DNA from: Nanoarchaeota archaeon SCGC AAA011-G17
Lineage (GTDB): Archaea; Nanobdellota; Nanobdellia; SCGC-AAA011-G17
Assembly: GCA_000402515.1 (NCBI GenBank)
Contig: AQRL01000036.1
Location: forward strand, 4,871 to 68,870
Length of the DNA stretch: 64,000 nt
Reading direction: 5' to 3'
Shown: one piece after another, positions 18,842 through 41,846 of the stretch
Numbering within the stretch: the first letter of the stretch is position 1
Layout of the letters: every line of letters starts with the position of its first letter
Made by a program: the position numbers and the translations under genes
Notes under the pieces: model-generated
The model's input: the letters and a program-made list of their open reading frames with translations, nothing else
Databases searched by the model: none
Told to the model about the DNA's origin: nothing

Positions 18842-18985
18842 TAGATTATAGAAGATTTTATTGTAAAGCCATTTAATGCCTCTAAAATTGAAGAGACTAT
18901 GAAAAAGATTTTGAAGTAGATAACTTAATTATTAGTTTTATTAAGAGAACGAAAGATTTAAATATAAGTTCTATTTAAAATACTT

Positions 18986-20782: not shown

Positions 20783-20785
20783 CTT

Positions 20786-21631: not shown

Positions 21632-21720
21632 ACCAATACTATATCATTACAAATATTTAAATTTATTGTTTTTGTGAAATATGTAATGGTAATTATTGTG
21701 GTGTATATTTTTTATAACCC

Positions 21721-23145: not shown

Positions 23146-23654
23146 TTTCTTATTTTATGAATTATATAATAAGTTGCAATTGCCACTGCTATTAAAATTG
23201 CTGCTATAACATAATATGGATTTCTTTGCTTTTCTATCTGGGCCTGCTGTGTCTCTTTTTGGAATCCCTGCTTAAATAATTCCAATTGTTTTTTATTTGC
23301 TTTATTTAATTCCTCTCTCTGCTTCAAAACATCTGTTTCTGTTGAGCCAAACTGCAGTTCCTGCTCAAAATTTAATCCGTTAGATGAAGTTATAGTAATT
23401 GTATGCTTGCCTGGCTCTATTGTCGGAAAGATTGAGATTGCTTTTTTTGAGGCTAACCTTTGCACCAGAATGTTTTCTTCCCCTTGATCTATACTATATT
23501 TTAAATCATTGTAATTAATCGCTGTTGGGTTAAGTATTCTCAGCCTTGCTGAGCCTGTTTCTGGTGTGTAGGAAACTATCGAGATTTCTAAATCCTGGGC
23601 AAATGTAATTGGAATTAGGAACAGTGCTATAATTAATAAGATTATTTTTTTCAT
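23142..23654 (-). CDS. Small secreted protein with C-terminal TM anchor
   Basis: Start moved to MKKIILLIIALFLIPITFA (SD-like GGAGG upstream); C-terminal YYVIAAILIAVAIATYYII. Confidence 0.5.
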   Translation of the reverse strand: MKKIILLIIALFLIPITFAQDLEISIVSYTPETGSARLRILNPTAINYNDLKYSIDQGEENILVQRLASKKAISIFPTIEPGKHTITITSSNGLNFEQELQFGSTETDVLKQREELNKANKKQLELFKQGFQKETQQAQIEKQRNPYYVIAAILIAVAIATYYIIHKIRK

Positions 23655-23662
23655 TTTTCCTC

Positions 23663-25678
23663 CTAATAACATGCTGGGTCTTCTGTTAAGGTATTTGGTT
23701 GACATTCTCCATAAGATATTGGCCATAAATCTTTTTCTCCCTTTGCCTGCCTTTGTTGATTTTCACTAACTTTAGCACGACATACATCATATTTATAACA
23801 ACAAGTGGAAGATACCTCTGATGTTAAATCTGTACAGACATTACCTCTACATGCATCATTAGATGAGCATTGGGCATTAGATGTACAGCATTTTTTTCCA
23901 TCTGTTTTTGTAATGCCGGCACAATTTTGGTCTGCACAATCTGCTAATCCATTACAATTATTATCTAGAGTATCTGAGCATAAAGCCTGTGTGTTTTCTA
24001 ATTTACCTGGATTTATATTTACATTATTGTCATTACAATCCTGACTATTTGTTACATATCCTGCTGGTTTGGAGCAAGCAGTTGTTGTTGATGTGCTGCC
24101 ATAATTATCACTATCAGAATCAAGATAATAAGTTATAAGAGGAGTACTTCCAACGCAATTATTATTACAGTCATTTGTTCCACCACAACCACAGGCCTGC
24201 CCATAATAAGAAGGATTTGCAGGGATTGCTGCTGAGCAAGAGCCATCACACTGGATTGTTCCCGGGTTGGTCTGGCCACAGTTGTTTGTCTGAGAGTTAC
24301 ATATCTGCCCAAAATTTTGTACACAACAGGATCCACAATCTTTCGAGCATGATCCACAATCTTCCCCCGATTCACAGATATTGTTACCACAGACTGCTCT
24401 TGGCGGAGGAGGAGAAGGAGGAGTACCGCATGATGCTCCCATCTTGATATTGCCGTTGGTATCAAATCTTCCCCTACATGGCTCATTACAGCCAGATAAT
24501 TCTTCCTTTATATCCCCTGGCGTTCCGGATGAGCAACCGTCATTGTGATTCTCATAATAATAATGAAGCCCTACAGGGTATTTTGAAGATTCTCCCCATC
24601 TTTTCCATATACTATTTACAGTACAAATTATATTCTGTTTTTCACAGACACATTTTGCAACATCATACCAAGAACCAGAGCATGTTGTTACGGGGAGACA
24701 AGTTTGAGTTTCTGCTGGCTTGTTTGCTATTGTACCACAATTCTTTGAATCTGTACATGTTCTTGTTTGTGCTCCATTAGTACATGCTGACCAAGCAGAA
24801 CAACTCCACGATTCCTGACAGGCAATGCTTTGTAATGTCGTCATCAGGCTGTTTTTGTCTGCTGTCCATGGTAAAATATTTTTTGAGTCAAAGGCATCTT
24901 TATTTTCATTATCATAAGCATTACATGTTGCTTTGATTGTTTTACCTGCCCAATTGGTGGGAATTGAAAATGAATATTTAAAATCAGCACCAGACCATTG
25001 CATAGGCTGTGGGTTTATTGTCCATGATTCTCCTAGTGGACCAACCCATACTTTAGCATTTAGGAAAGAGTCCCCTTTGTCATCTGTGAAATCACAAGTT
25101 AGAGTTACTTGTGTGTTAATTGCTGGATTTGAGTTAGAGGTTGTAACTCCTGATATATATTGTGGGGGGTTGTTTATACTTGGAACATAAGTAATAGCTA
25201 TTGATGTTTCTTTTTGATTATTAGCTGTGTCATATGCTTTCGCTTGCAGATTAAATATGTCATATGCTTTCGCTTGCAGAAGAAATTGAGCTGGATTTTG
25301 GAAGGTTATTTGTTTACTCCAAGATGTTGTTCCTGTAGCTAACTCCCAATTACCCTCATCTAACCTTACTTCTACTTTTGCTATTCCAGAAGTATCAGAG
25401 GCTGTTCCTGAGACTGTTATTGTAGGAGTAGTAAATGCCTGACCTGTTGTCGGGGAGGTTATTGTGACTGCCGGAAGGATTGTATCTGAGATTGTACATC
25501 CACACCATCCTTGTCCCATTAGAGATATAGATTCAATAATTGATCTATCTGCATCTCTTGTACAATAATAATTTACGCTGCATATTGTTATTCCTTGTTT
25601 TGAACAGGTAATTGAGTTAACATTAGGGATAATCAATAAAGAGAATACTAAGAATATTATCAATACACCCCTTTTCAT
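23663..25678 (-). CDS. Large cysteine-rich secreted protein (671 aa)
   Basis: Signal peptide MKRGVLIIFLVFSLLIIPNVNS; many CxxC/CGxxxC clusters; internal 30-bp tandem duplication (FNLQAKAYD x2). Confidence 0.6.
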   Translation of the reverse strand: MKRGVLIIFLVFSLLIIPNVNSITCSKQGITICSVNYYCTRDADRSIIESISLMGQGWCGCTISDTILPAVTITSPTTGQAFTTPTITVSGTASDTSGIAKVEVRLDEGNWELATGTTSWSKQITFQNPAQFLLQAKAYDIFNLQAKAYDTANNQKETSIAITYVPSINNPPQYISGVTTSNSNPAINTQVTLTCDFTDDKGDSFLNAKVWVGPLGESWTINPQPMQWSGADFKYSFSIPTNWAGKTIKATCNAYDNENKDAFDSKNILPWTADKNSLMTTLQSIACQESWSCSAWSACTNGAQTRTCTDSKNCGTIANKPAETQTCLPVTTCSGSWYDVAKCVCEKQNIICTVNSIWKRWGESSKYPVGLHYYYENHNDGCSSGTPGDIKEELSGCNEPCRGRFDTNGNIKMGASCGTPPSPPPPRAVCGNNICESGEDCGSCSKDCGSCCVQNFGQICNSQTNNCGQTNPGTIQCDGSCSAAIPANPSYYGQACGCGGTNDCNNNCVGSTPLITYYLDSDSDNYGSTSTTTACSKPAGYVTNSQDCNDNNVNINPGKLENTQALCSDTLDNNCNGLADCADQNCAGITKTDGKKCCTSNAQCSSNDACRGNVCTDLTSEVSSTCCYKYDVCRAKVSENQQRQAKGEKDLWPISYGECQPNTLTEDPACY
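25231..25290. repeat. 30-bp tandem duplication inside the CDS (2 units)
   Basis: gtcatatgctttcgcttgcagattaaatat / gtcatatgctttcgcttgcagaagaaattg. Confidence 0.7.
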
Positions 25679-25722
25679 AGTATAAAAAAGAATATTAGTT
25701 TATAAAAATCTTTTGGTTAAAT

Positions 25723-26303
25723 TTATATTAGATTCAGAATTATTTTCTGCATTCCTTTCGGGTAATGCCTTATATATGAATTTAATTTTTTTCTGTCTAT
25801 CTTACTAATTGTATTCTTTAAAGCTTCTTCGCTTAATTTTTCCTTGAAGTAGAGCATATCAATAAATGTCTTTTCAATGTTGGAGTAAGGAAGAGCAACC
25901 CTATCATTAAAATAATCAAAACCAAAAAAATATTTTTTATTTATTCTTCTTATAAGAACATTCCCCCCCAAGATATTTCTTATTCCCGGCTTTATTTTTC
26001 TTGCTGTTATTATTATTGGGATGGTTTCCTGCTCCAATAAATTATGAAAACTAGAGAATCCTGCAAACCAAGATAGGCTGGCTTGAAACAAAAAACAGCC
26101 AAGGAAGAGTCATTTAAGGAGGTGTAATATCCTTTGGCTAATCTTTTTATCTTTTTCTTCAGCAATAAATTTCTTATCAACTACTTGGTATACTGCCTGA
26201 CATTTTTCCTTTTTTTTACTATCTTTTCAATAGAATTATAACTGACTACCTTACTCTTTTTAAATAATTCCTTTATTTCTTCCTGATATTTTATCTTTCC
26301 CAT
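25723..26303 (-). pseudogene. Disrupted AbiEi-like antitoxin gene (40-aa N-terminal fragment 26181-26303 plus 122-aa C-terminal fragment 25723-26091)
   Basis: C-terminal fragment KKYFFGFDYFNDRVALPYSNIEKTFIDMLYF parallels the intact AbiEi at 32210-32923 (KQKYFFGYNKENYRGYDTFIADPEKAIIDSALF); hand-translated N-terminal fragment MGKIKYQEEIKELFKKSKVVSYNSIEKIVKK... ends in a stop. Confidence 0.55.
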
Positions 26304-26425
26304 TGTTTTATGTAATCAACATGGGTTACTAATATGTATAACTTCCGCTGATTCTTAAATTTTTATTATTTTTTAAAACAATAGTTTATTGCTGGAGTTG
26401 AGGCAGAGCTAATTGCAATACCAAT

Positions 26426-27601
26426 TTACTTATTAGTTAAATGCTTTGACAAATTTATAATATTAGTAAAGATTATTTCGCAATTTTCCTCTTTTATTAT
26501 CTTTTCTTCGCCTTTGTAAAATACAACTAATGCCTTTCTTGGTTTATATTCTTTAATAAATGATAATAACCCCCTCCCTATTTTTTTCGGGTTTGTCAGT
26601 TTTACTTCAATAGGCAAAACTCCCTCTTTTTCTATAACAAAATCAACTTCTGATCCTGATTTTGATCTCCAGTATTTTGGAATAAGGCTGGTTTTTATAA
26701 GTTCATCAAACACATAATTCTCAAACAATGCTCCATCAATTTCAGAATCAAACTTCTTTGAAGTATAATTTCTTATACCAGAATCAATAAAATATATTTT
26801 TGGCTGTTTCGTTATCTCTTTAAGCTTATTCCTAAAAAAAGGGATTGCTGCAAAAACTAAGTTGCTCTTTTCTAAGGCGCATAAATATTTTTTTATTGAC
26901 TGAAACGAGAGGTTAATGTTTTTTGAGATTTCATTATAAGAAATCAAGCCTCCGACAGACAATGAGAGATACCTTGTGAATTCTTCTAGAGATTTTATAT
27001 TTTCTATTGAAAAGTTCTGCGCAACATCTTTTAGCAGCATTATTTCATATAAATCTTTTAGAATTGTTTTTTTAATTTCTAACTCGCTGTTAGCCACCAC
27101 CATCGGATAGCCTCCATAGACTGCATGCTCCCAGACAATTCTTTCTGCTATCTGTTTATTAAGCTCTTTATGGTGCATTGCTTTGGTAAACTCATTTAAT
27201 GAAAGGGGGTACAATCTTAAGATTGACACTCTTCCCACAAGATAGGACAAAACCTGCTTTCCTAAAATTAATTCAGATGAAGAAGTAATCCAAAGCTTAT
27301 GGCCTTTATCTGCCAAATATTTTAAATTTCTTCCAGCTTCCTTGCAGTAATGAACTTCATCTAAAATTGTAACCTCATTGCTTTCTACATACTGCCTTTC
27401 AAATTTCTTGACATCTTCCTCAAATAAGTTTCTTACATCAGGATCATCAAAAAGAACATATTTTGATTTTAGAGTTTTTGCCTGTTCTTTTAAGAAAGTT
27501 GTTTTGCCTGCCTGCCTTGGCCCGACTAAGGCGATTATTGGATAAATTTCTTTAATCTTGTCAAATTGCTCTTTTATCTCTCGTTCAATGTATTCTGCCA
27601 T
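26426..27601 (-). CDS. AAA+ ATPase with DUF4143 domain (second member of COG1373-like family)
   Basis: Walker A LVGPRQAGKTTFLK; paralogous architecture to 18986-20248. Confidence 0.65.
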   Translation of the reverse strand: MAEYIEREIKEQFDKIKEIYPIIALVGPRQAGKTTFLKEQAKTLKSKYVLFDDPDVRNLFEEDVKKFERQYVESNEVTILDEVHYCKEAGRNLKYLADKGHKLWITSSSELILGKQVLSYLVGRVSILRLYPLSLNEFTKAMHHKELNKQIAERIVWEHAVYGGYPMVVANSELEIKKTILKDLYEIMLLKDVAQNFSIENIKSLEEFTRYLSLSVGGLISYNEISKNINLSFQSIKKYLCALEKSNLVFAAIPFFRNKLKEITKQPKIYFIDSGIRNYTSKKFDSEIDGALFENYVFDELIKTSLIPKYWRSKSGSEVDFVIEKEGVLPIEVKLTNPKKIGRGLLSFIKEYKPRKALVVFYKGEEKIIKEENCEIIFTNIINLSKHLTNK

Positions 27602-27634
27602 AATTATCTATAATCATCTGGATTTATAAATTTT

Positions 27635-27699
27635 ACTATTATTAATGTTTAGTTTAATTTTAGTATGACTATTATTAATGTTTAGTTTAATTTTAGTAT
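27635..27699. repeat. Tandem repeat, 2 x 32 bp with 33-bp period, in the upstream region of the ATPase gene
   Basis: actattattaatgtttagtttaattttagtat repeated exactly, separated by g. Confidence 0.8.
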
Positions 27700-27863
27700 T
27701 TTAGGTGGGTTATAATCTTTTTTCCTTTCTTCTCATCTTTTGTTGCACTTATAAGGCAATCTCTGACTTCTTTTGTTGTACGATATCATGACATTTGTCA
27801 CGGTATCACACAATATGACAACATTGGGTTAAATTTATATATAAGTTTTCTTTCTTAATAGAT

Positions 27864-29777
27864 ATGAAAAAAGAGGGAGTAATATTTTTATTAATTGTTA
27901 TTTTATTAATGGGCTCTGCCTATGCTGTTGAGATGAAAATAAAAGAAGAAGTGAATGGGGCTGTTAAGACTTATTATACCTCCGGTGTTGCTGCATGCGT
28001 AGGAAAGCCACCATGCAAAACTGTAAAAATTATTGATTTTGCTAGTGGGCAGCAAGGCTATATTGGTTGCGATAAATATATACCCCCATATTTATATGCA
28101 AAGGCTAGTTGCCAAAATTACAAGTATGCTTTGGTCAGAGACGGCAGTTTAATGTCCAATATTTATTATAATGACGGGAATAGTGCTTGTTCGGACAAGT
28201 GGGGCTTAACATGCTTGTCTATTAATTATGGGAATGATAGAAATGTTCCTTATAATGACAATAGCGGATGCAGTTGGTATTTTGGCTCAAATTTTATTAC
28301 AGCTACATGTGATTATAGTTGTACAGGCACTGTTCCTACAAAGGCTGCATTATGCACAGGTGATGAGACAGGATTAACAGCAGATGCTTCCAGAACTACA
28401 GTAACCAGCTGTACTACTGCTAAAAAATGTGAGTATACCTGTAATGCTGGCTATACTCCATCAGCAGATAAAACTAGCTGCATAACAACATGTACTCCCA
28501 GTTATGTGAATAGCTGTGATAATTCAGATGGGTGCGGAAATACAAGAAGCACTTCTCCTTATAATTCGTGTAATTTAGCAACTGCCGGGGCATGCGGGAC
28601 AGAAACAGCCTGCACTGATAGTGTTGATAATAACTGCAATGGAGAGTCTGACTATGACAGCAGAGATGGAAGGCATGGCGATTCTTCCTGTGCTGTTGGA
28701 GTAACTGGAATCTCTGTAAGCAATGCAAATCCCTATGTAAATACTGCTATTAGTGTTTCATGCACTTCAACTGCTACCAATGTGAATAGCATTAGCGCAA
28801 CTCTTGGGGGAAGTTCCTGTCTCTATAGCTCATGGAGTGGAAATGTTGTTTCTTTCAGCTGCAATACTGGAAGCTCTGCAGGAGCTAAAATGGCAACCTG
28901 CTATGTTGATACAACTAAGAGCTATAAATCCGGAAGCGACCCAAGTAAATATGTTAATGTGCAGGTTCCTGTCTGCTCAAGCTATTCTGCCTCTCCCGGC
29001 TGTAGTTCCAATGCTAATTGCGAGTGGTGTGTTCAGTGCAGTAATCCATTTTCTACTGGACAGGCTGATGCTTGTGTAACCAAAGGAAGCTGCCCTGTTA
29101 GAACGTGCCGCAAAAATCAGTGCGGTGCTGCTTGTGATAATACTGTTGGTGGCTGTCCTGGATTTAGCTGTAATACAAATACATGCAAGTGTGATGGTGT
29201 GGATGGCGTTTGCGGAACTGCAAATGGAAAAACTTATCCATCTGCAACTACCTCATGGGGAAGTGATAGTTTCTGTAACTCTGGTACTGCTAGTCCTACT
29301 AACCCCGCATTCCCCTCTGCTGGCGGAATAACAACATGGTCTTGTGTTGGCACCTATGGAGGAACTGTTGCTTCTTGTTCTGCTTCAAGAAGTACAGCTA
29401 CTTGTACTCCTAATGCTTATCATACAACAGACTGTTACAGCACTACCCAAAGAAAAAAATGTAATTCTCAAGGAACAGCATGGATTGGAGAGACATGCGC
29501 TTCACCAAATACACAATGCTCCGGGAATAATCAGTGTGGTCCTCCTATTGCTGTTTGCAGCTCAAATAACTGCGGGGCTTGTACTAGCTTAAGCAGCTGT
29601 CAGGCACAAGCACAATGTAACTGGGACCAATACCATAATGTTTGTATTCTAGCAACTGCTAACTGTGGAACTCCATGTAATCCCTTTGTTAGTAATTGTT
29701 TTATAGAAGCAAATCAGGCCTGTTGTACTGTAAGCGGTGGGACTGGAGAAGTTTTGTTTGGTATTATTACTTTTTAA
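27864..29777 (+). CDS. Large cysteine-, Thr/Ser- and Gly-rich secreted protein (637 aa)
   Basis: Signal peptide MKKEGVIFLLIVILLMGSAYA; dozens of Cys in CxxxC/CGxxxC contexts; internal + strand ORFs in other frames are shadows. Confidence 0.6.
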   Translation: MKKEGVIFLLIVILLMGSAYAVEMKIKEEVNGAVKTYYTSGVAACVGKPPCKTVKIIDFASGQQGYIGCDKYIPPYLYAKASCQNYKYALVRDGSLMSNIYYNDGNSACSDKWGLTCLSINYGNDRNVPYNDNSGCSWYFGSNFITATCDYSCTGTVPTKAALCTGDETGLTADASRTTVTSCTTAKKCEYTCNAGYTPSADKTSCITTCTPSYVNSCDNSDGCGNTRSTSPYNSCNLATAGACGTETACTDSVDNNCNGESDYDSRDGRHGDSSCAVGVTGISVSNANPYVNTAISVSCTSTATNVNSISATLGGSSCLYSSWSGNVVSFSCNTGSSAGAKMATCYVDTTKSYKSGSDPSKYVNVQVPVCSSYSASPGCSSNANCEWCVQCSNPFSTGQADACVTKGSCPVRTCRKNQCGAACDNTVGGCPGFSCNTNTCKCDGVDGVCGTANGKTYPSATTSWGSDSFCNSGTASPTNPAFPSAGGITTWSCVGTYGGTVASCSASRSTATCTPNAYHTTDCYSTTQRKKCNSQGTAWIGETCASPNTQCSGNNQCGPPIAVCSSNNCGACTSLSSCQAQAQCNWDQYHNVCILATANCGTPCNPFVSNCFIEANQACCTVSGGTGEVLFGIITF

Positions 29778-29787
29778 AATAAAAAAA

Positions 29788-30132
29788 TTATTTAATTTTA
29801 AGTCTTTTGGCTTCTTTTTGTAAGCGTTTCAAATGTGCTTTGTTATCTATATACCATTGTTTTTCACTTCTGTCACAAAAAGATTTATCTCCTTTTTCAG
29901 CTACTTCCTTATCCCATTTTTTAGTTATATCCTCAAAATAATTTAAGGCCTTTAAAACCCTATTTTTGTAAATTGAACTTTTTTTAAATTCATCTAATAA
30001 TTCAGTTGTTTTATTGATATCTTGTTCAATAGATAATATTGATGCCATTGGTAAAGGATCTTCTGGCTTTGCCTTTGAGGCTCTAATTTCTTCCTTAAGT
30101 ATTTCTAATCTATCATATTCCATTTTAATCAC
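29788..30132 (-). CDS. Small charged hypothetical protein (possible partner/immunity to upstream gene)
   Basis: 114 aa; 1-nt intergenic gap to 30134-30718. Confidence 0.3.
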   Translation of the reverse strand: MIKMEYDRLEILKEEIRASKAKPEDPLPMASILSIEQDINKTTELLDEFKKSSIYKNRVLKALNYFEDITKKWDKEVAEKGDKSFCDRSEKQWYIDNKAHLKRLQKEAKRLKIK

Positions 30133-30133
30133 A

Positions 30134-30718
30134 TCATTTGATTTTTTTCCATCTGCCTTTACTCACTTCTTTGAGTACATCAGATTTTGTCTTAGGAAAA
30201 CAGGTTATTATATCTTTTCCATTTATATCCCCAACTGTTAGCATTCCAGTAGAGGGATTATAAGCAATGCTTCTACCATCAGCCACCTGAATATATCTTT
30301 CAATTTTTGATGATTTGCTGTTCATGTTATTTAAACATTCTTTTTTGAATTTGCTTTTTGATGGAGGAACCTTCCAGATATTAGGAAAATCATATCGATG
30401 GTCATATGCATGTTTTGTTAATGTTTTGTAATTATATGCACTATAATATATCCATGTAGAGTAACTAACCCTATAAACAATATATCCAGTGGCAATAACC
30501 GCAACACCTATTGCAATATAAGTAACCCCTACACTAAATAATATTGCAACAATCCATGTAACTAAACCGGGAAAATTATAATAATAGGATGCGGGTATTG
30601 GTTGCTGCTCATTCTTTATTTTTTGCTCTTCATTTATCTCTTGAGCAAAACAAACTGGCAACATTATTAATAATAAAGAGATTAAAATCACAGCAGAAAC
30701 TTTAATATTATGTTTCAT
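30134..30718 (-). CDS. Signal-peptide/membrane-anchored protein with soluble C-terminal domain
   Basis: MKHNIKVSAVILISLLLIMLPVCFA signal, two TM helices, C-terminal RYIQVADGRSIAYNPSTGMLTVGDINGKDIITCF. Confidence 0.4.
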   Translation of the reverse strand: MKHNIKVSAVILISLLLIMLPVCFAQEINEEQKIKNEQQPIPASYYYNFPGLVTWIVAILFSVGVTYIAIGVAVIATGYIVYRVSYSTWIYYSAYNYKTLTKHAYDHRYDFPNIWKVPPSKSKFKKECLNNMNSKSSKIERYIQVADGRSIAYNPSTGMLTVGDINGKDIITCFPKTKSDVLKEVSKGRWKKIK

Positions 30719-30764
30719 AATATCCTCTTATAGATAACAAGATATATAAATATTGCTACAAGGA

Positions 30765-32075
30765 TTAGTATCCCTTTGGCACTAAATGATAAATTGTTCC
30801 TATGTTATCTTTATCCAACTGTGTGAAGTCTTTTGCTATCTGAGAATCATGATATAGTGTTGCAGCTGAATAAGCTGGATTAAAAGTGTCTGACAAATTC
30901 ATATGTGATTGAGAAGCCTCTTCCCTGTATATCCCCTTGCTGTTATCAGTATCACTAAACATATCTAAGTACCATATTCTTGCCCCTGTAACTGTATTTG
31001 TATTCCAATCTACATAAACCTCATATCTTGCCAATGCACCCGAAGGAATATTTGGATTCCCTATTGGAACAAAATAATGCTTGACATTTGCCTGCAGAGA
31101 ATCATTTACTATTTCTGGCTTTATTTCTGACTGGAAATTAACATAATCTTCAGTTATTACTTTTATTAACGCAGGTTTAGCTTGAGATGTGTTTGCATAT
31201 GGATTTAAAGCATTATTCTCCTGTATCCAATCCTTTGGTGTTGTTTCCCATTTTGCTACTGGAACATTCCCCTCATTATACCCTTTTTTCAAGACCTGAT
31301 AAAAAAATTCAATATCAATGTCTTTATTCAAAATAACTCCATATTTATTTAGATTTGAATTAACTTTTGTATCAAAGTAATACCATACAACATAAGGGTT
31401 CCTATCTTCAAAAAATGGATATTTCCAATAGCCATCTGCATCAACACACATCTCATAATCTCCAGGCAATAAATAAACTGAATAATTTCCCTGGGCATCT
31501 GCTGTATCTGCCTTTACCAGATTCCAATTCTTGTCTTTAAAGGAAACAACTGCATTTGGGACTGTAGAGTATTCCGGATTTCCTGCATGTATTCCAAGAA
31601 CTTTTCCAGAAACCTTGTATTTCCCGTAATTTCCTCCAAGAACCTGCAGTAATGTAATCAAGTCAAAGATGTCTGTTTTGCTGTTATTATTGACATCCCC
31701 GGATAGTGCAGGATAGCTCTCTGGATGACCAAGGATTTTAAGCAATTCCAATAAGTCAAAGATATTTGTTTTTCCATCATTATTAACATCAGAATTGGGT
31801 GTTTCTGAGGCTAACTGCGCTAGAGAAAGTGCCTTCTGCTTTCCACTATCATAGGGGGCTATTGCCTCTGCTTCTGAAAGCATTTCCTCCAGTGAGTAAT
31901 TTCCCGACTGCACTAATGGCTCGTATTTCTGTGAAAACTGCTCAACTGTCTGTACAGGCTCTTCATATTTAGGGGAGGTAATGTCTCGTGAGCAGGCTAC
32001 TGGGAGGGATATAGAACCAGCTAATAAATAAGGCGCTATCTTCCTTCTTAGTTTAGTTATTAAGCCCTCTTTCAT
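30765..32075 (-). CDS. Secreted protein containing a dockerin type-I repeat pair
   Basis: DVNNDGKTNIFDLLELLKILG and DVNNNSKTDIFDLITLLQVLGG match the dockerin Ca-binding repeat. Confidence 0.6.
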   Translation of the reverse strand: MKEGLITKLRRKIAPYLLAGSISLPVACSRDITSPKYEEPVQTVEQFSQKYEPLVQSGNYSLEEMLSEAEAIAPYDSGKQKALSLAQLASETPNSDVNNDGKTNIFDLLELLKILGHPESYPALSGDVNNNSKTDIFDLITLLQVLGGNYGKYKVSGKVLGIHAGNPEYSTVPNAVVSFKDKNWNLVKADTADAQGNYSVYLLPGDYEMCVDADGYWKYPFFEDRNPYVVWYYFDTKVNSNLNKYGVILNKDIDIEFFYQVLKKGYNEGNVPVAKWETTPKDWIQENNALNPYANTSQAKPALIKVITEDYVNFQSEIKPEIVNDSLQANVKHYFVPIGNPNIPSGALARYEVYVDWNTNTVTGARIWYLDMFSDTDNSKGIYREEASQSHMNLSDTFNPAYSAATLYHDSQIAKDFTQLDKDNIGTIYHLVPKGY

Positions 32076-32125
32076 AGCTTTTTACAGTGTTTTTAGAGTA
32101 TTTAAATATTATGGTTTGTTACTAC
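32052..32125. repeat. ~73-bp direct repeat (copy 1) covering the start codon/promoter of gene 30765-32075; copy 2 at 33713-33785
   Basis: tttagttattaagccctctttcatagctttttacagtgttttt...atttaaatattatggtt...gttactac shared, ~90% identity. Confidence 0.8.
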
Positions 32126-32209
32126 TTAAATAGAATAAATTAAGGAAGAAGAAAGATTTATATAGTATAATCAATTAACTAATAGTATCAAATTTGATAA
32201 TATAGGTTT

Positions 32210-32923
32210 ATGAAAAGTATAATATTGTTAAAGGAACTTGAAAAATATAAAGTATTTAATAATAAGGTAGTTAGAGACATAATAAAAAAAGATCATAACT
32301 ATACTAGGCTGCTTATATATCGGCTTAAAAAGAGCAACTTAATTATAGAAATAGAGAAAAACAAATACACAGTACACGAAGATCCATTAATTATAGCAGA
32401 TAGTATGGTGTGGCCATCTTACCTTTCCTGCTGGACTGCTTTGAGATTTCATAACTTAACAGAACAGCTTCCAAATACAATCTTTGTTATAACAACAAGG
32501 TCTAGAAAAAACAATAAAATAGTATTTAATAATAATAAAATCATTTTTATAAAAGTAAAACAAAAATATTTTTTTGGGTATAATAAAGAAAATTACAGGG
32601 GTTATGATACATTTATAGCTGACCCAGAAAAAGCCATAATAGATTCAGCATTATTTAAGAAGATATCTTTATCTGAGTTATACACCATTATTAAAAATAA
32701 TTTAAATTCAATAAATGCTGCTTTGTTTATTGATTATTTATTAAGAATAAAAAATAAAACCCTGATAAAAAGATTTGGAATTTTATTTGATAAGCTTAGA
32801 TTAGACTTTTATGACAAATTAAAATCCTTTATTAATAATAAATATATTATATTGGATTATGCATTGCCCAAGAATAAAAACAAAAACATGAAATGGAAGG
32901 TAATTGAAAATGTTAGATATTAA
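32210..32923 (+). CDS. abiEi: AbiEi-family antitoxin/transcriptional regulator
   Basis: Upstream partner of AbiEii with 20-nt overlap; C-terminal domain similar to AbiEi. Confidence 0.6.
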   Translation: MKSIILLKELEKYKVFNNKVVRDIIKKDHNYTRLLIYRLKKSNLIIEIEKNKYTVHEDPLIIADSMVWPSYLSCWTALRFHNLTEQLPNTIFVITTRSRKNNKIVFNNNKIIFIKVKQKYFFGYNKENYRGYDTFIADPEKAIIDSALFKKISLSELYTIIKNNLNSINAALFIDYLLRIKNKTLIKRFGILFDKLRLDFYDKLKSFINNKYIILDYALPKNKNKNMKWKVIENVRY

Positions 32924-33680
32924 TGAACTAAAGAGAATTTCTGAGCTAAAAAGAATTTCATTGATAAATACAGAAAAAGATTATATCCAGGATATTATTT
33001 TATTCAGCCTTTATTCTAATATCGGAAGAGAATTTATATTTAAGGGAGGAACTTGCCTTTATAAGGTGTATAAGTTAAATAGATTTAGTGAAGATTTAGA
33101 TTTTACACTAATAAAAAATGCAGATACCAAAAATATTTTTAATAAATTAATTTATGATTTAAAACTTCTTAATATTAATGGAAATATTAAAGAGATTAAA
33201 GAATATAAAAATGAAATTAATGTGAGATTAATCTTCAATGGCCCCCTCTACAGGGGAAGAAAGGAAGAGCAGTGTTTTATTCCTATAAATATAAGCCTAA
33301 AAGAAAAAGTTCTTATAGAACCAAAAAATGAAATGATAATTTCTATGTACAAAGAAATTCCAAATTTTGAAATTTTCATTATGGATGAACAAGAAATACT
33401 GGCAGAAAAATTCAGAGCTATATTAAGCAGGGAAAAACCAAGAGATATTTATGATGCATGGTTCTTATTAATAAAGAAAAATATAAGCCCCGATATAAAG
33501 ATAATCAATAAAAAGTTATCTCTATATAATCTTAAATTTAACTTGAATAAATTTATAGATAGCGTTGAAAAAAAGAGAGGCTTATGGAATTTAGATCTTA
33601 AAAATTTAATTATAGGAGAGCTTCCTGATTTTGATGAAATTAAGAAAGAAATTATTTCTAAATTAAAAGAAAATCATTAA
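32904..33680 (+). CDS. abiEii: AbiEii/AbiGii nucleotidyltransferase toxin (DUF1814)
   Basis: FKGGTCLYKVYKLNRFSEDLDFT matches the KGGTAL...RFSEDLDF nucleotidyltransferase signature. Confidence 0.8.
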   Translation: MKMLDINELKRISELKRISLINTEKDYIQDIILFSLYSNIGREFIFKGGTCLYKVYKLNRFSEDLDFTLIKNADTKNIFNKLIYDLKLLNINGNIKEIKEYKNEINVRLIFNGPLYRGRKEEQCFIPINISLKEKVLIEPKNEMIISMYKEIPNFEIFIMDEQEILAEKFRAILSREKPRDIYDAWFLLIKKNISPDIKIINKKLSLYNLKFNLNKFIDSVEKKRGLWNLDLKNLIIGELPDFDEIKKEIISKLKENH

Positions 33681-33712
33681 AATTAGCTTGCATTTTTTAG
33701 TTTCTTTCCTAA

Positions 33713-33785
33713 TTTAGTTATTAAGCCCTCTTTCATAGCTTTTTACAGTGTTTTTCAACTATTTAAATATTATGGTTGTTACTAC
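33713..33785. repeat. ~73-bp direct repeat (copy 2)
   Basis: See 32052-32125. Confidence 0.8.
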
Positions 33786-33846
33786 TAATAGTTAATGAAT
33801 AAAGGAAAGAGAAAGGTTTAAATAACAAAAGTAATAAATAATTTTT

Positions 33847-34056
33847 ATGACAGAAACAATAACAATGCCAAGAGGAGAATTTAAGAAATTAATTTCTGAT
33901 GTAGAAATAGTCATAAACGATGTAGAATCAATTCTCTCTAGTGAAGACAAACTTACTAAAAAAAGGATTGATGATATAGAATCCGGAAAAGTAAAGGGTA
34001 AAACTGAAAAAGAATTAGATGAGTATCTTAAGAATAGAGGGATAAGAGTTGGCTAA
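33847..34056 (+). CDS. Small antitoxin-like protein (69 aa)
   Basis: Short charged ORF immediately followed by a RelE-like remnant. Confidence 0.35.
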   Translation: MTETITMPRGEFKKLISDVEIVINDVESILSSEDKLTKKRIDDIESGKVKGKTEKELDEYLKNRGIRVG

Positions 34057-34185
34057 TTGGGAGATAAAAGAGCACCCAGATTTCTTTAAGGACTTAGACA
34101 GATTAAATAAAAGTGAATTAGAAATATTTTATAAAAAGAAAGAAAAAATCAAGAAAAATCCAGACTGGGACAAAAGTTAATAAAA
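34057..34185 (+). pseudogene. RelE/ParE-like toxin remnant (no ATG; stops after ~42 codons)
   Basis: Hand translation WEIKEHPDFFKDLDRLNKSELEIFYKKKEKIKKNPDWDKS* resembles the RelE N-terminus (W.I.F...F.KDLKKL...NP..G). Confidence 0.4.
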
Positions 34186-34355
34186 TTCTTACAATAGAAG
34201 AAAGGTTCAATAAGGTAGAGAATGAGCATAATCTTGTTATGAATAGCAAACTAAAACTCAAAAATAGATAATTCTTGTAAATTTATTTGAATTACATATT
34301 AAAACAATTCTGACCAAAACATTTAAAAGTAAATTTTCTAAGAATCTATTAGTAT

Positions 34356-34378
34356 GCGTCAGTAGTCTAATGGTTAGG
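34356..34378 (+). tRNA. tRNA 5' fragment (acceptor+D-arm, GCGTCAG-TA-GTCTAATGGTTAGG) with no cognate 3' half nearby
   Basis: 19/23 identity to the 5' end of the tRNA-Gly at 35298; possible split-tRNA half or integration remnant. Confidence 0.4.
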
Positions 34379-34421
34379 TAAAATAGATAAACTTTTATAC
34401 TCATTAATCTTATTTTTATTA

Positions 34422-35264
34422 ATGAAATATCTGGATTTTAGTAAAAAAGACCAAATTTCATTTATGAGGTTAGTTAAAGAACGAAGTAATCTTAAATGGG
34501 AAAAAATTGCACATTTTCTTGGTATCCATAGAAGTATGATTTTTTTCTATTTGAATGGTAAATCAAAGATTCCATATGAAAATTATAAAAAATTATGTAG
34601 TTTAGCAAAAATAAAACAATCACACAAATCATATGTTTTTATAAAAAATAAAATACAACCAATAAATAAAATTAATATGATTGATAATAATCTTGCTGAA
34701 TTATTAGGTATTCTTGCAGGAGATGGTCATATTTCCAATATAAATTATGAAGTTTGTGTTAGTGGGCATATGATTCTAGATAAAGAATATATCAACAAAA
34801 ATGTAGTTTTCCTTTTTGAAAAGTTATTTGGTCTTGACTCTAAATTAAAAATATACAAACCATATACCCATCTTAGATGCTGTGTTAATTCAAAATTACT
34901 CATAGAATATTTATCAAAAGAATTTAATTTACCAGTTGGAAAAAAGAAGGGGAATCTACATATTCCCAAACAAATAATTGAAGATAAATTACTATTAAAA
35001 TATTATATACGTGGTCTTTTTGATACTGATGGTAGTGTATATTTTAGACGCAAAAAAGACATTGTTGTATCAATAATTAGTGGAGATTTATTATTTTTGA
35101 ATGAGGTAAAAAATGCATTAAAAATTTTAGGATATAATCCATGCGTAAGTGGAAAAAACCTTTATCTTTATAAAAAAGAAGAGGTAAAAAGATTTTTTTC
35201 TGAAATTAATCCTATAAATAAAAAACATTTGGATAGATATTCTAATTTTTTGAAACTGCGTTAA
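34422..35264 (+). CDS. Free-standing LAGLIDADG homing endonuclease
   Basis: Two LAGLIDADG motifs: LAELLGILAGDGHIS and LKYYIRGLFDTDGSV. Confidence 0.8.
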   Translation: MKYLDFSKKDQISFMRLVKERSNLKWEKIAHFLGIHRSMIFFYLNGKSKIPYENYKKLCSLAKIKQSHKSYVFIKNKIQPINKINMIDNNLAELLGILAGDGHISNINYEVCVSGHMILDKEYINKNVVFLFEKLFGLDSKLKIYKPYTHLRCCVNSKLLIEYLSKEFNLPVGKKKGNLHIPKQIIEDKLLLKYYIRGLFDTDGSVYFRRKKDIVVSIISGDLLFLNEVKNALKILGYNPCVSGKNLYLYKKEEVKRFFSEINPINKKHLDRYSNFLKLR

Positions 35265-35297: not shown

Positions 35298-35420
35298 GCG
35301 CTGGTAGTCTAATGGCTAGGAATCCTTTGTGGATTTCACAGGGATTAGCAAATAGGGGCCTTCCAAGCCTCTGATCCGGGAGATGCTCTGCATCCGGAAA
35401 TTCGAGTCCCGGCCAGCGCA
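35298..35420 (+). tRNA. tRNA-Gly (anticodon UCC) with two putative non-canonical introns (~32 nt near position 26/27; 20 nt between positions 53/54 in the T-arm)
   Basis: Acceptor GCGCTGG/CCAGCGC; anticodon arm GGGGC-CTTCCAA-GCCTC (35355-35371); variable TGAT; T-stem CCGGG (35376-35380) | agatgctctgcatccggaaa | TTCGAGT-CCCGG; mature length 71 nt. Confidence 0.6.
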
Positions 35421-37826: not shown

Positions 37827-40502
37827 TTATTTAGCTCTCATGAATGCAAAATTAATCTGCTTTTCTGACCAGCCGTTTTTTGCAAGTACATTTTTTATAT
37901 TTTTTTCAGGGATATTTTTAGATTTTGCGCTTTTTATGTAAGCAACTAGTTTATTTAATTCTACATTAGAAGAGAAGGGAATCTTCTGTTTTATTGAAAG
38001 CATTGCCATTAATTTCTGCACTGGCTTTATTGATGTTATATATCCTGGCTTGAAAACAGAAACTAGCTTTATTGCTCCTGCTACCAAAATAATTATTATT
38101 GTAATCACAAATGCTGTCCATGGGAAGCGCGAGCAGTCAGCTGGGCAGTTAGCTGGAGTTTCTCCCTTGGCTGTTTCACATTTGTTATTCCCGCAGGTAC
38201 AGTCTTCCGGACAGGACAGATAATCCTCTGCAGGGTTGCATATACTGTTCGGACAGTCAAAGGCAATCAGCTTGATGTTAAGATTTTCAGGGGTAAGGAT
38301 AGTGATTATTTTTGATATTGAAAGAAGATTGTCAGTGTTAAGAAGATAAATTATTGAGAGTTCATTTGTAAAGGAGTCAAAACGGTAATTTAGGGTTTGC
38401 TGGTTTACAACCTCGGGTGTTTCTTTTACTGGAGTTAATTGTGAAACAGATAAAGTGGATGGAAGAACTTGTTTTACAAATACTTTTTCAAGAGGGGCTT
38501 TTGTAGTAAATGTTTCTTTTACCAAAACAAAGGATTCCTGCGCTGCATTGATATAGGTTATCTTGACAATCTTTGCCTTGATCTCTTTTTCTATTTTTTC
38601 ATTTATATTCTGTATTGCAAGCTTTGATTCCTCCTGCTCTGCTGGATAGACTGAAGAGATATCACTATAAGTTAGATATGGCTTTATTGTAAGAGAATCC
38701 TGGACAGAGATTAATCTTGGTATTTTTTCTGAGATTGATGCTAATTGTTCATCTATATTAGACAGTTGTGATATGTTTAATTTTGTTTCATAATCATCCA
38801 GAGTAGCTTTTGAATTTTCTATTAAAGCGCCCAAGCCAAGATCTGTGTAAACCTCTTTTATCTCAGCTGGGGCTGTTTGATAGTAAGTATAGGCATTGTC
38901 AAAGCTGTATTTTGTCTCCTGAAAATTTAATGGGGTTCTTGAGATTAAGGTAGAGACTGTAAGCTCTTCTTTTCTTGGAACTGATATTCTTCCTTTTGCA
39001 TCCTTTACTATTAAAGTTACTGTGTATTTTCCTGATTTTGCAAAGGATTTTGTGACTTCTTTAGTTGTAAAACTGGTATTATCTGAGAAAGCCCAATTAT
39101 AAGATAGCAGGGAATCATCTGGTGAAGAAGAGCCCTCTGCTGAGAAAATTGCCTGTTCTCCTGGTGCTAAAAGAGCAGAGGAGATTGAGATATTTGCAAT
39201 TGGCTTTGGAATCACTGAAATATTTTTTTCATCTGAGTAGGATTTGAATTCTGCTTTTAATTTATAGGATTTTAGTTCTGCTGGGACATTCATAGAGAAT
39301 TTCTGCAGATCTATTGGGGTATCTGAGAAGAGCATTAAGGTGCCTGATTCCTCTTTTAAGTTAGCTGCAAATCTGCTTATTGTCCTTACTGTTCCCTGTA
39401 CCTGTTCCTCAAGAACAAGGTCTGATATTTTTAATTCATTAGCATCTCCTGTTTTAATATGAATAGGGATAACACAGTATTCCTTATTATTATAAATTGT
39501 GTAAACACAGTTCTGGAGATAAGCAGCCAGCTTTGTTATTAATAAACTGCCATCCTGATTTGACATAGTAATTGTTTCTTCGGACTTGAGAAAAGAATCA
39601 TGAGCTAATGGCTGGATATTAATTAAATAATCATAGCCGAGCTTTGTGCATTCCCCTCCTGATGAACATTCTGAATAGCCTTCTTTAAGTTCATTTTCTG
39701 CTGTTGTTTTTATCTTATTTGAAACACCTGATGAAAGGCAGAAAGAATAATAACCAATATCAAATATTCCTCTCTGGCCTGATTCTTCCAGAGTAATATT
39801 GCATTCAAGCCAGGCAAAATCTGCTGAGCTTACTGTTCCCTTGCATTTAGAATAATAAATCTCATTAAGGTCTTTGTCAAAAACAGAGACATAAGGGATT
39901 GTATTCTGGGTTGTTTTTACATAGGATTTTAATTTTATCTCCATTGTTTTTTGGGTAAATAATCTTTCACAGTTTGTTGTAATCCTCTGCTCCTCTGTAT
40001 TTTCTGTTGATGTAATTCCTTTGGCTTCTAAATAAGTTATTCCTGGAACACCATTGCTTGTCCAGTCTATTCCGTCATTTCCAAGGTCAATCTTTGGCTC
40101 CTGAACTGGATTAGCTAGTGGAGATATTTTAAAGCTGAACTGAGCATCTTCTGGAATAAGTGAATCTTTTGGGAAGAGAATTCCTACTGTAAAATCTGTT
40201 CCTGATGCATCCGGCAATAAAGAGCCTGAGGCAGAGTAATAGGAGTAAGATTCTTCATAATCCGCTGCTGCTAATAATTCCTTAAGGGTTTTTTCTTTTG
40301 CATCAGTAATTGTGAGCTTTACTTTTTCATTCTGCGAGTAAACTCCCTGCGGTATTATTAAAACACCTGAGAGCAGTTCATTCGGACCAAATTCATCTGG
40401 AGTTGCTAACTCAAAGGAAGAGACTGCATAAACAGGGAGAATTAAGAAAAACCCAGTTAGGAATACTACTGAAAAGAATGTCAAAATATTTTCGTTTTCC
40501 AT
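37827..40502 (-). CDS. Large surface protein (891 aa) with PKD domain, Cys-rich stalk and C-terminal TM anchor
   Basis: Signal/TM N-terminus; PKD-like LSYNWAFSDNTSFTTKEVTKSFAKSGKYTVTLIVKDAKG; CPNSICNPAEDYLSCPEDCTCGNNKC; TM FVITIIIILVAGAI. Confidence 0.6.
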   Translation of the reverse strand: MENENILTFFSVVFLTGFFLILPVYAVSSFELATPDEFGPNELLSGVLIIPQGVYSQNEKVKLTITDAKEKTLKELLAAADYEESYSYYSASGSLLPDASGTDFTVGILFPKDSLIPEDAQFSFKISPLANPVQEPKIDLGNDGIDWTSNGVPGITYLEAKGITSTENTEEQRITTNCERLFTQKTMEIKLKSYVKTTQNTIPYVSVFDKDLNEIYYSKCKGTVSSADFAWLECNITLEESGQRGIFDIGYYSFCLSSGVSNKIKTTAENELKEGYSECSSGGECTKLGYDYLINIQPLAHDSFLKSEETITMSNQDGSLLITKLAAYLQNCVYTIYNNKEYCVIPIHIKTGDANELKISDLVLEEQVQGTVRTISRFAANLKEESGTLMLFSDTPIDLQKFSMNVPAELKSYKLKAEFKSYSDEKNISVIPKPIANISISSALLAPGEQAIFSAEGSSSPDDSLLSYNWAFSDNTSFTTKEVTKSFAKSGKYTVTLIVKDAKGRISVPRKEELTVSTLISRTPLNFQETKYSFDNAYTYYQTAPAEIKEVYTDLGLGALIENSKATLDDYETKLNISQLSNIDEQLASISEKIPRLISVQDSLTIKPYLTYSDISSVYPAEQEESKLAIQNINEKIEKEIKAKIVKITYINAAQESFVLVKETFTTKAPLEKVFVKQVLPSTLSVSQLTPVKETPEVVNQQTLNYRFDSFTNELSIIYLLNTDNLLSISKIITILTPENLNIKLIAFDCPNSICNPAEDYLSCPEDCTCGNNKCETAKGETPANCPADCSRFPWTAFVITIIIILVAGAIKLVSVFKPGYITSIKPVQKLMAMLSIKQKIPFSSNVELNKLVAYIKSAKSKNIPEKNIKNVLAKNGWSEKQINFAFMRAK

Positions 40503-40544
40503 ATTACCTCTTTTTAAATAATATACAATAGAGTATATATAAAG

Positions 40545-41027
40545 TTAATGGATGCTTGTGACTATCTTGCTGATATTTTTAAAAAATTTAAAAGCGTGCT
40601 CTATAGATTCCTTAGCTGGCTCCAGATTTGCCTGCGGAAGCTTTTGGTATGTAAATTTTCCTCTTTTCTGCTTTTCTGCCTTAAATAATTCAAGCAATTC
40701 ATCTGCCCTTATAATCATACTGTTATATATCTTTAATAATTCTACATCCAAAATTCCAGTATCAACAAAATGCTTTTTGAATTCATCTAAAGTTTTTTTA
40801 TGAACTTCTGGAAAATCAGTCTTGATATTTTTTATCAGTAATAATGCCTTTGCACAGTAGAATATACAATAATAAGAATGCGATATGACTGCACTATAGA
40901 AGGTTATTCCCTGAGTAAGGTCAAGAGTTAGCTTTAGATTATCATTCTGTGAAACATCAAGCAAGGCTTTTGCCAAATCCCTTTCATTTTCTGCCCTCTG
41001 TAAGTACAAATTAACCAGTGAATCCAT
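40545..41027 (-). CDS. HEPN-domain protein (partner of the upstream nucleotidyltransferase)
   Basis: HEPN-like N-terminal helices LQRAENERDLAKALL...YYCIFYCAKALLLIKNI; 17-nt overlap with MNT gene. Confidence 0.55.
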   Translation of the reverse strand: MDSLVNLYLQRAENERDLAKALLDVSQNDNLKLTLDLTQGITFYSAVISHSYYCIFYCAKALLLIKNIKTDFPEVHKKTLDEFKKHFVDTGILDVELLKIYNSMIIRADELLELFKAEKQKRGKFTYQKLPQANLEPAKESIEHAFKFFKNISKIVTSIH

Positions 41028-41640: not shown

Positions 41641-41846
41641 TTTTAGTAACGATTATTACTTATTTTAGTAATATATAAAGTTTTCTGTTAAGGATAAATT
41701 TTAAATGATTATATAAGTTAATGTTTTACAACGGTTTCTTGTTATCTATATACTCTTTAATCCTGTTAATAAACTCTTTTGGGTTTATTGGTTCACAACC
41801 AAGCTCTATGGAAAGGTTTAAATATAGTTACTTAGAAGTAGCTATT

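Follow-up and report, generated by a model that had tools for sequence, protein, structure and literature searches.

Direct repeats of a host gene start and promoter flank an AbiE toxin–antitoxin module in a nanoarchaeal genome

Results and discussion

An AbiE operon lies between two copies of a neighbouring gene start

In a 64,000-nt stretch of the genome of Nanoarchaeota archaeon SCGC AAA011-G17 (GenBank assembly GCA_000402515.1, contig AQRL01000036.1, positions 4,871 to 68,870; hereafter the window, to which all coordinates refer unless another contig is named), an operon encoding the antitoxin AbiEi and the toxin AbiEii is bracketed by direct repeats that duplicate the start and promoter of the adjacent dockerin-domain gene. 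Related genomes, whose contigs are designated by L numbers, carry the repeated segment once at the corresponding place and lack the operon, which identifies AbiE as an insertion. Similar repeats of local sequence flank AbiE at unrelated loci and border further small inserts in the window. Integration of a small AbiE-bearing circle through a single crossover is an explanation that we regard as evenly poised between right and wrong, and several rivals are weighed below.

A repeat search of the window revealed direct repeats at 32041–32116 and 33702–33777 (76 nt, 92% identity), with abiEi and abiEii as the sole genes between them. Past a 1-nt indel, similarity runs on to 32178 and 33838, respectively, at 73% identity. 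The two repeats share an identical core of 42 nt (32053–32094 = 33714–33755), which occurs twice in the 64 kb and was never found in 100 shuffles. Comparison by blastn-short aligned 32052–32126 with 33713–33786 (75 nt, 94.7% identity), and local alignment of the 450 nt 5' of abiEi with the 450 nt 3' of abiEii scored 158 as compared to a maximum of 32 in shuffled sequences (n = 100). Sensitive BLAST searches with both repeats detected no other copy of either in the window. These repeats are confirmed as real and non-random. An initial annotation, prepared by a model from the DNA letters and a list of open reading frames (ORFs), had described them as 73 bp long with ~90% identity; their existence stands, but they are longer, the high-identity duplication spanning 86 nt (32041–32126), or up to 124 nt when generic promoter similarity at the right end is counted.

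The left repeat (R_L, 32041–32126, delimited by the repeat search and by alignments A1, A2 and A5) comprises codons 1–12 of the dockerin gene, the dockerin promoter and the block ATTATGGTT(T)GTTACTACT, with weaker similarity extending to 32164. The right repeat (R_R, 33702–33786, weaker similarity to 33824) comprises a dead dockerin start, an intact palindromic TATA box (33760–33769) and the conserved block. On its left side, the duplication is bounded by dockerin codon 12, which in the right copy lies ~18 nt past the abiEii stop codon, whereas the weak rightward extension (32127–32164) reflects at least in part generic similarity between B recognition element (BRE)/TATA sequences. In agreement with the initial annotation, it is R_L that holds the genuine dockerin start and 5' region, i.e. 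the ATG and the first 12 codons of an N-terminus common to the orthologues. The view that the second copy is decaying needs qualification: its dockerin start is dead, reading MKEGLITKLGKKLKNAS-stop within a 17-codon dead ORF (33683–33736, minus strand), but its right half would be a working promoter, with a TATA box at -30, of the downstream 69-aa gene. The first 24 nt of coding sequence are the same in R_L and R_R and unlike those of every other lineage, and R_R is 97–98% identical over 64–67 nt to the single upstream copy of the AbiE-free contig L002.

Contig AQYW01000072.1 (GCA_000380905.1; L001), a separate deposit that may stem from the same single-cell data, shows 100% identity to window positions 20765–33932 and spans both repeats. 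Because the copies differ by 5–8%, an assembly collapse or an amplification chimera is ruled out. That contig stops at window position 33932, within the 69-aa gene and ~100 nt past the right repeat.

Relatives carry an empty site and other cargo at the same promoter

The empty site, which the initial annotation had proposed to seek in relatives, was found in L005–L010 and L046. In these contigs, a 46%-identical dockerin orthologue is followed by one intergenic copy joined directly to a gene of the 69-aa type, after which an intact 70-aa partner ORF comes next in L005 and L046. Window positions 33748–34163 are collinear with L046 4624–5040 at 92.6% identity, the homology ending at window 34163, and synteny continues further right with tRNA-Gly, PIG-L and glycosyltransferase genes in the empty-site relatives and the window alike. 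As relatives have a single intergenic copy joined to the same small gene, AbiE represents an insertion in the window. Its target was a divergent promoter region of ~125 nt, with the dockerin gene leading leftward and the small antitoxin-like gene rightward. Owing to the duplication of the first 12 dockerin codons and the promoter, both resident genes keep a predicted TATA box at -30/-31.

Contig L003 from the Hainich aquifer has a left junction like that of the window (dockerin gene, intergenic region, AbiE) at 90–92% identity. The similarity is lost 13 nt ahead of the abiEii stop codon, where the contig goes on with a winged-helix-like extension and another gene within unrelated DNA, and no second repeat is present in the remaining 528 nt. 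As annotated, AbiEii of L003 (1741–2685) has 314 aa, its last codons being swapped for the extension of ~65 residues; neither the extension nor the downstream gene has a significant match in Pfam or PHROGs. The same contig has a 100-N scaffolding gap in the 5' region of abiEii, just past the abiEi stop codon.

At the place of AbiE, the AbiE-free L002 carries an MNT-HEPN pair in the opposite orientation, the overlapping contigs L037 and L045 carry MNT-HEPN in the forward orientation, and L004 carries a gene for a large protein. The dockerin domain of the latter scores just below the cut-off (Pfam, 2.8e-4), and its N-terminus and leader resemble those of an RHS-like protein of L050. The same intergenic family is present in L050, L056 and L072 beside different left-hand genes, while the right-hand genes encode the RHS-like protein in L050, a kinase-like protein in L072 (both below the Pfam threshold) and, in L056, a protein that we read as epimerase-like. 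A 24-nt block, TAAAnATTATGG(T)TTGTTACTACT (window 32104–32126 and 33765–33786), is invariant in all 11 of the 11 aligned intergenic regions (alignment A5), even where the flanking genes are just 46% identical. This block may be a binding site for a regulator of secreted-protein genes, or a recombination site. These alignments predict the intergenic region to be a bidirectional promoter that is conserved while the gene on its right varies greatly.

In L002, a partial inverted copy of the promoter module is located at 2613–2680, after the dockerin stop codon and 5' of a 252-aa gene. It includes 34 nt, TTGTTACTACTAATAGTTAATGAATAAAGGAAAG, identical to the tail of R_R in the window, and the L002 dockerin gene is thus flanked by inverted copies of the conserved block.

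The inserted module is an ordinary member of the AbiE family

The initial annotation of an AbiEi/AbiEii pair between the repeats is borne out by PADLOC, which recognises both genes, and by Pfam for AbiEii. The antitoxin gene abiEi comes first (32210–32923, plus strand, 237 aa) and matches the PADLOC model AbiEi PDLC02267 over residues 3–236 (6.4e-42); it has no Pfam family at 0.01 or better. It overlaps abiEii by 14 nt (32910–33680, plus strand), whose product has 256 aa if translation starts at the ATG (32910) and 258 aa if it starts at a TTG (32904). AbiEii matches Pfam PF08843 (1.7e-27; 97.3 bits as compared to a cut-off of 22.5) and, from end to end, the PADLOC model AbiEii (5.2e-65). An exact-protein look-up of the 258-aa TTG-start version gave no match. 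The database holds 2,871 AbiEii relatives, and the best 120 of the 2,871 are 58–93% identical; among the matches listed, several are named by source as Nanoarchaeota, Woesearchaeota, Altiarchaeales or Omnitrophota. To judge from such names and from its gene content, the genome is probably of DPANN type. Matches of AbiEii to solved structures are weak (about 2e-4), and AbiEi has none.

Nucleotidyltransferases of the AbiE type are recognised by a glycine motif, by an acidic motif of the form DxD and, towards the C-terminus, by K..R..D. In alignment A3, the invariant columns of AbiEii are G46 and G47, S60-E61-D62-L63-D64-F65, E166, K167, R169 and A170, R174, K176-P177-R178-D179 as well as Y181 and D182. 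The motifs GG, SEDLDF and EK-RA-R-KPRDIYD are kept, and the C-terminus is native.

The operon has a putative promoter of its own, a BRE/TATA element GAAAG-A-TTTATATA at 32151–32164 (plus strand), 53 nt 5' of the abiEi ATG. Between this TATA box and the ATG lies a perfect palindrome of 14 nt, TATCAAATTTGATA (32186–32199; inverted repeat I17), which is kept as GTTATCAnnnnGATAAC in L003, L076, L079 and L080 (alignment A4) and also in L081 and L082. The palindrome is a candidate operator for autorepression by AbiEi. At other AbiE loci with a similar layout, the TATA box is found at approximately -57/-58 (L076, L081, L082) or -75 (L079), and the order of TATA box, palindrome and ATG is seen at six AbiE loci, the window and five others. 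Conservation of this layout suggests that AbiE brought its own promoter and likely its operator.

To judge from its sequence, the segment 32151–33680 is a complete and intact AbiE module. Type IV systems of the AbiE kind are distinguished by a bacteriostatic toxicity that is neutralised without direct binding of toxin and antitoxin, and by a phage-abortive phenotype. Judged by homology with AbiE systems that have been characterised, the module should act as a type IV toxin–antitoxin and abortive-infection system, in which AbiEi would serve both to neutralise AbiEii and to repress the operon, and freed AbiEii would arrest the growth of the infected cell.

Flanking duplications recur at other AbiE loci and at other inserts in the window

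Long flanking repeats of local sequence were detected at three of six independent AbiE insertion sites, their lengths varying between 58 and 124 nt. In addition to the window, where a repeat of 86–124 nt represents the dockerin start and promoter, the AbiE locus of L079/L080 is flanked by a repeat of 110 nt (85% identity) made of local non-coding or pseudogene sequence. The AbiE locus of L081 is flanked by a repeat of 58 nt, the first 26 nt being identical, which corresponds to the promoter of a divergent helicase gene plus the initial 25 nt of that gene; the right copy of the repeat starts at the abiEii stop codon.

A count of direct-repeat pairs in the window (25 nt or longer, spaced 200–3000 nt apart) gave four, including the AbiE pair, as compared to none in 10 shuffles. 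The initial annotation had noted a like architecture at 12.8, 18.8 and 47.8 kb, and these pairs were indeed recovered (12836/14098, 18772/20714 and 47806/48663). The first is a 33-nt repeat with 91% identity (12836–12868 and 14098–14130), whose left copy equals the last 30 nt plus the stop codon of a gene for a GCD14-like tRNA methyltransferase; the two minus-strand ORFs between the copies (121 and 278 aa) have no match in Pfam or PHROGs. The second consists of two tRNA-Arg(CCT) copies (18766–18842 and 20708–20783) that are identical over 60 internal nucleotides and differ in their acceptor ends. They reach 50 and 64 bits with Rfam, respectively, and the first looks like the decaying one. This pair (repeat 18772/20714) brackets a gene for an AAA_14/DUF4143 ATPase and a 124-aa ORF, and no integrase. 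The third is a bidirectional promoter repeat (47797–47857 and 48654–48714; 61 nt, 95% identity, 52 nt identical), flanking a convergent pair composed of an unknown ORF (146 aa) and a gene for a tRNA-binding-domain protein of 110 aa. Each copy lies 11–12 nt 5' of a leftward gene, namely the ProRS gene and the tRNA-binding-domain gene, and directly 5' of a rightward gene.

A fifth case, if the AbiE locus is included, is found just beyond it. A dead copy of the tRNA-Gly upstream flank together with the first ~25 nt of the gene is located at 34310–34381, and a LAGLIDADG-HTH endonuclease-like gene (34422–35264) separates it from the real tRNA-Gly(TCC) gene (35298–35420), which contains two insertions of ~27–34 and 15–20 nt (boundaries set by eye). 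This tRNA gene was missed by ARAGORN and Rfam and was recognised through alignment to the intronless tRNA-Gly of L005 (7683–7754). The arrangement resembles the outcome of att-type integration in the 5' portion of a tRNA gene. A LAGLIDADG endonuclease domain is also present elsewhere in the window, in an intein that interrupts an ABC-type ATPase gene (7117–9297).

How the module may have arrived

The account that we favour, with confidence and doubt about equal, is a Campbell-type insertion-duplication by a small circle. A small circular DNA would have carried AbiE together with a dockerin-promoter copy, its probable source being a related strain that, like L003, already had AbiE next to the dockerin promoter. 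A single crossover with the resident copy, catalysed either by homologous recombination or by an integrase acting in trans, would then leave the two repeats as recombination joints. We prefer a single crossover because it is the simplest topology that places foreign DNA between two copies of a short host segment; a double crossover between alleles of the L003 type would be impossible, as the right side of L003 has no homology to the window. Subsequent loop-out between the repeats would delete the antitoxin gene along with the toxin gene, and post-segregational killing could select against such loss. Plausibly, toxin–antitoxin addiction thus stabilises the insert and renders the signature frequent or persistent around AbiE, although the copies have diverged by 5–16%.

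The differences between R_L and R_R are clustered. R_L reads AGAGT as does the AbiE-bearing L003, R_R reads CAACT as does the AbiE-free L002, and the 15-nt tail after GTTACTACT is family-typical in R_L and of another type in R_R. This clustering fits two origins of the copies, but is suggestive only. It is counted in favour of recombination, as are the lack of terminal inverted repeats and of a conserved 3' flank at the cassette, the lack of a hairpin in the repeat and the lack of an integrase among the ~40 window ORFs scanned. The AGAGT/CAACT block was also considered as proof of two origins and was downgraded, the patch varying in nearly every lineage.

Several points speak against insertion-duplication by a circle. 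The AGAGT/CAACT patch has six variants among eleven aligned sequences, and R_R may be ancestral, with R_L and L003 sharing a derived state, which would fit an in-situ duplication predating the split between the window and L003. The AbiE loci of L076, L082 and L086 have no flanking repeat. A donor allele with AbiE beside the same promoter is required, and its first origin is left unexplained; moreover, the repeats of L079 and L081 are local to unrelated loci and would call for a separate donor each, or for a mechanism of de novo duplication. Neither a circle nor a donor molecule nor a recombinase was seen, so that the mechanism is deduced from topology, and the abortive-infection and toxin functions are assigned by homology.

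A doubtful, though tenable, alternative is that the locus is the remnant of a larger element, similar to a cis-mobilizable element (CIME). In this scenario, an integrase-bearing virus or plasmid that carried a mimic of the dockerin start and promoter would have entered this segment site-specifically, the repeats would represent attL and attR, and everything save AbiE would have been deleted. CIMEs are defined as decayed elements that retain attL and attR (PMC5704250), and the repeats resemble such sites in having an identical core at the borders (42 nt within 86–124 nt). Likewise, perfect blocks edged by lower identity, as at att sites, are seen in L081 (26 nt) and L079 (30 nt). Two other inserts in the window are located at tRNA genes (tRNA-Arg and tRNA-Gly), which are classical integrase targets; at the tRNA-Gly site, the ancestral upstream flank has stayed with the displaced dead copy, which att-type integration would predict. 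The DNA beyond abiEii in L003 could be residual sequence of the element, and a precedent for integration at the 5' end of a protein gene is given by the dusA integrases (PMC4482086). However, a Pfam scan of ~40 window ORFs revealed no integrase, none lies within or beside any of the five inserts, and no link emerged to the att sites of known archaeal integrases, for which the initial annotation had suggested looking. The pattern ATTATGGTTN{0,1}GTTACTACT had 23 matches in the genome collection, all bacterial or unrelated chance matches; the same pattern had one match in viral contigs, which is due to chance, and a metagenome scan yielded 6 true relatives among 41 matches. No AbiEii relatives encoded in viral contigs were found, and an origin of the cassette from a virus or plasmid was rejected, as its DNA is without match in phage or plasmid collections. 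Likewise, no related element that is intact and uses the repeat as att site was found, a weak negative given that mobile elements of DPANN archaea are poorly sampled. Decay would, in addition, have had to trim three independent cassettes to within 0–97 nt of the abiE promoter and 0–60 nt of the stop codon while keeping a useless repeat. Finally, the five repeat pairs have no core in common, and hence no single integrase could explain them all.

The presence of unrelated local repeats around AbiE at three loci, and around other cassettes in the window, would also be accounted for if the target itself had been duplicated, that is, if the strands were cut 30–125 nt apart, or the replication machinery switched templates, with the gaps filled and the copies diverging later. 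The 24 nt of coding sequence that are identical in both copies and unlike those of other lineages point to a duplication within the lineage. We nevertheless judge it decidedly improbable. Duplications of 30–125 nt are not known to us from any prokaryotic transposition system, and the lengths observed here vary, from ~26 nt at tRNA-Gly (an estimate from alignment A6) through 33, 58, 61 and 86–124 to 110 nt. The differences between the copies are clustered and match variants of other lineages. No transposase was detected, terminal inverted repeats are lacking, the inverted-repeat score of the cassette ends being equal to that of shuffles in the window, L079 and L081, and there are no conserved ends, including the 3' flank. 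An attC-like hairpin, as expected of an integron-type cassette, was rejected: single-stranded DNA folding of both repeats, on both strands, gave z values between -0.73 and +0.44. Very improbable is a tandem duplication of the dockerin gene with its promoter, in which AbiE later replaced the second copy save 12 codons. A dockerin start is recognisable in the right copy, and paralogous surface-protein genes and fragments are common in the region; yet three events would be needed where one suffices, no relative examined has a tandem dockerin pair, and the like geometry at the L081 helicase gene argues for a common one-step process. Scarcely credible, and largely refuted, is the possibility that the repeats belong to a dispersed family of promoters, or arose as an artefact of assembly or amplification, and have nothing to do with the arrival of AbiE. 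The initial annotation had named a dispersed family unrelated to insertion as the finding that would overturn its view. A family does exist, since the intergenic region is found beside different genes in L050, L056 and L072 and its 24-nt block is shared by 11 sequences, but it is small; the core occurs twice only in the window, and relatives, the empty site included, always carry exactly one copy. Because 35 nt of dockerin-specific coding sequence are included, the duplication is local and tied to the insertion. An artefact is contradicted by the separately deposited contig, which agrees across both diverged copies.

Comparison with known systems

AbiE is among the few defence systems for which enrichment in DPANN archaea has been reported (PMC12988326), and the AbiE module is itself an ordinary member of its family. 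It resembles the AbiE systems of Lactococcus and Streptococcus agalactiae, and the related MenA/MenT toxins, in the overlapping operon, the PF08843 motifs and the upstream inverted repeat, and differs from characterised AbiE in belonging to an archaeal subfamily with proteins of 237 and ~255 aa and a BRE/TATA promoter. What is unusual is the recurrence of operon-sized, integrase-less inserts bounded by 30–125 nt duplications of gene ends or promoters, three AbiE loci included, together with a conserved promoter platform that has strain-specific downstream cargo. In a limited literature search, no description of such a recurrent integrase-less, repeat-flanked pattern was found.

As in Campbell-type integration, known from insertion-duplication mutagenesis and from prophages and plasmids, direct copies of a shared segment flank the insert and both neighbouring genes stay intact. 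However, the shared segment in the window has just ~90–125 nt, no circle, vector or recombinase was seen, and the insert is a bare operon of 1.5 kb. Integrase-less remnants flanked by att sites are known in bacteria as CIMEs, and the direct repeats without recombination genes are a feature in common (PMC5704250); as to the window site, its cargo differs by strain. In contrast to CIMEs, no related intact element or integrase is known, the window repeats consist of a promoter and a gene 5' end rather than a tRNA 3' end, and the host is an archaeon whose genome is very small. Integrated archaeal elements with flanking direct repeats are well known; they carry integrases and are found mostly at tRNA genes (PMC4158269). 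The tRNA-targeted proviruses among them, with att repeats of ~55 nt (PMC4158269), and the dusA-specific islands (PMC4482086) similarly duplicate a gene end and leave the target gene functional. Unlike the insert described here, which measures 1.5 kb and has no integrase, these elements carry an integrase and tens of kb. Integrons, such as the Vibrio superintegron with its toxin–antitoxin cassettes, share small promoter-proximal cassettes, direct repeats of ~100 nt and a promoter platform with variable downstream genes, whereas the window lacks IntI and an attC hairpin and its repeats are local host sequence differing from locus to locus.

The locus bears on the question of how tiny DPANN genomes gain and keep defence genes, for which it supplies both an occupied and an empty allele, a strain-variable site for toxins or toxin–antitoxin systems and a repeat signature found again around unrelated AbiE loci and other small inserts. 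Insertion-duplication of circles stabilised by addiction would, if true, be a simple and testable route of accessory-gene gain in reduced genomes and would explain the over-representation of toxin–antitoxin systems among repeat-flanked islets. The duplication also illustrates how insertion into a shared divergent promoter, here a predicted one, can leave both neighbours correctly expressed. A speculative extension, which we rate as rather unlikely, is that small archaeal genomes of DPANN type gain defence and toxin–antitoxin operons by an as yet undescribed, integrase-less route that duplicates 30–125 nt of a gene end or promoter. Bidirectional promoters with the invariant block ATTATGG(T)TTGTTACTACT would then serve as reusable landing pads at which AbiE, MNT-HEPN, the small antitoxin-like pair and RHS-like toxins are swapped or stacked, resembling an integron platform that operates by different chemistry.

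Resident genes and the surrounding islet

The dockerin-domain gene (30765–32075, minus strand, ATG at 32075) encodes 436 aa with a Pfam Dockerin_1 match above the cut-off (8.5e-06, 26.3 bits), and its product is probably a secreted protein or lipoprotein. Five proteins only in the database are similar to it, one of which (P0121) is 78% identical over 99% of the length and four (P0122–P0125) are more distant; an exact-protein look-up of P0122 gave no match. By position and consensus, a palindromic sequence TATTTAAATA at 32099–32108, 31 nt 5' of the dockerin ATG, is its putative TATA box. Promoters were assessed by a survey of archaeal TATA positions instead of a sigma-70 promoter and terminator scan, a bacterial model being uninformative for an archaeon. 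Most genes that come first in an operon of the window have a TTTAWATA box whose first base lies at -28 to -31 relative to the ATG, which implies leaderless transcripts, the one for the dockerin gene included.

To the right of the AbiE module, the 69-aa antitoxin-like gene (33847–34056, plus strand) is the ancestral right neighbour of the dockerin gene. The product shares its first 39 residues exactly with that of the ORF in L005 and L046, and it scores below threshold with Pfam Unstab_antitox (0.016). A predicted TATA box TTTAAATA (33817–33824, plus strand), 30 nt 5' of this gene, would be the resident rightward promoter, which the duplication left beside its gene. The gene is followed by a remnant of the partner ORF truncated to 43 codons (34049–34180, plus strand), which has no Pfam match and corresponds to the ORF that is intact at 70 aa in L005 and L046; this partner is regarded as toxin-like. 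The small pair decays reciprocally: in the window (33847–34180), gene 1 is intact and the partner is cut to 43 codons, while in L005 (9464–9877) and L046 (4725–5138) the 70-aa partner is intact and gene 1 is frameshifted in an A-run, possibly through a sequencing error.

The AbiE site forms the distal end of a variable toxin–antitoxin islet of 3.3 kb that reaches to tRNA-Gly. In the same islet of L005 (7950–9256), a 212-aa winged-helix-like ORF is accompanied by a 222-aa nucleotidyltransferase with a weak AbiEii-like match (7e-4), and the two may constitute another nucleotidyltransferase toxin–antitoxin pair. Compared to L005, window segments 33748–34163, 40435–41706 and 25635–27697, which hold toxin–antitoxin-type cassettes and an AAA_14/DUF4143 gene, have 90–92% DNA identity, while the PIG-L/glycosyltransferase region and the peptidase U32 gene have 70–76% only. 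The higher identity of the cassettes suggests their recent exchange between lineages.

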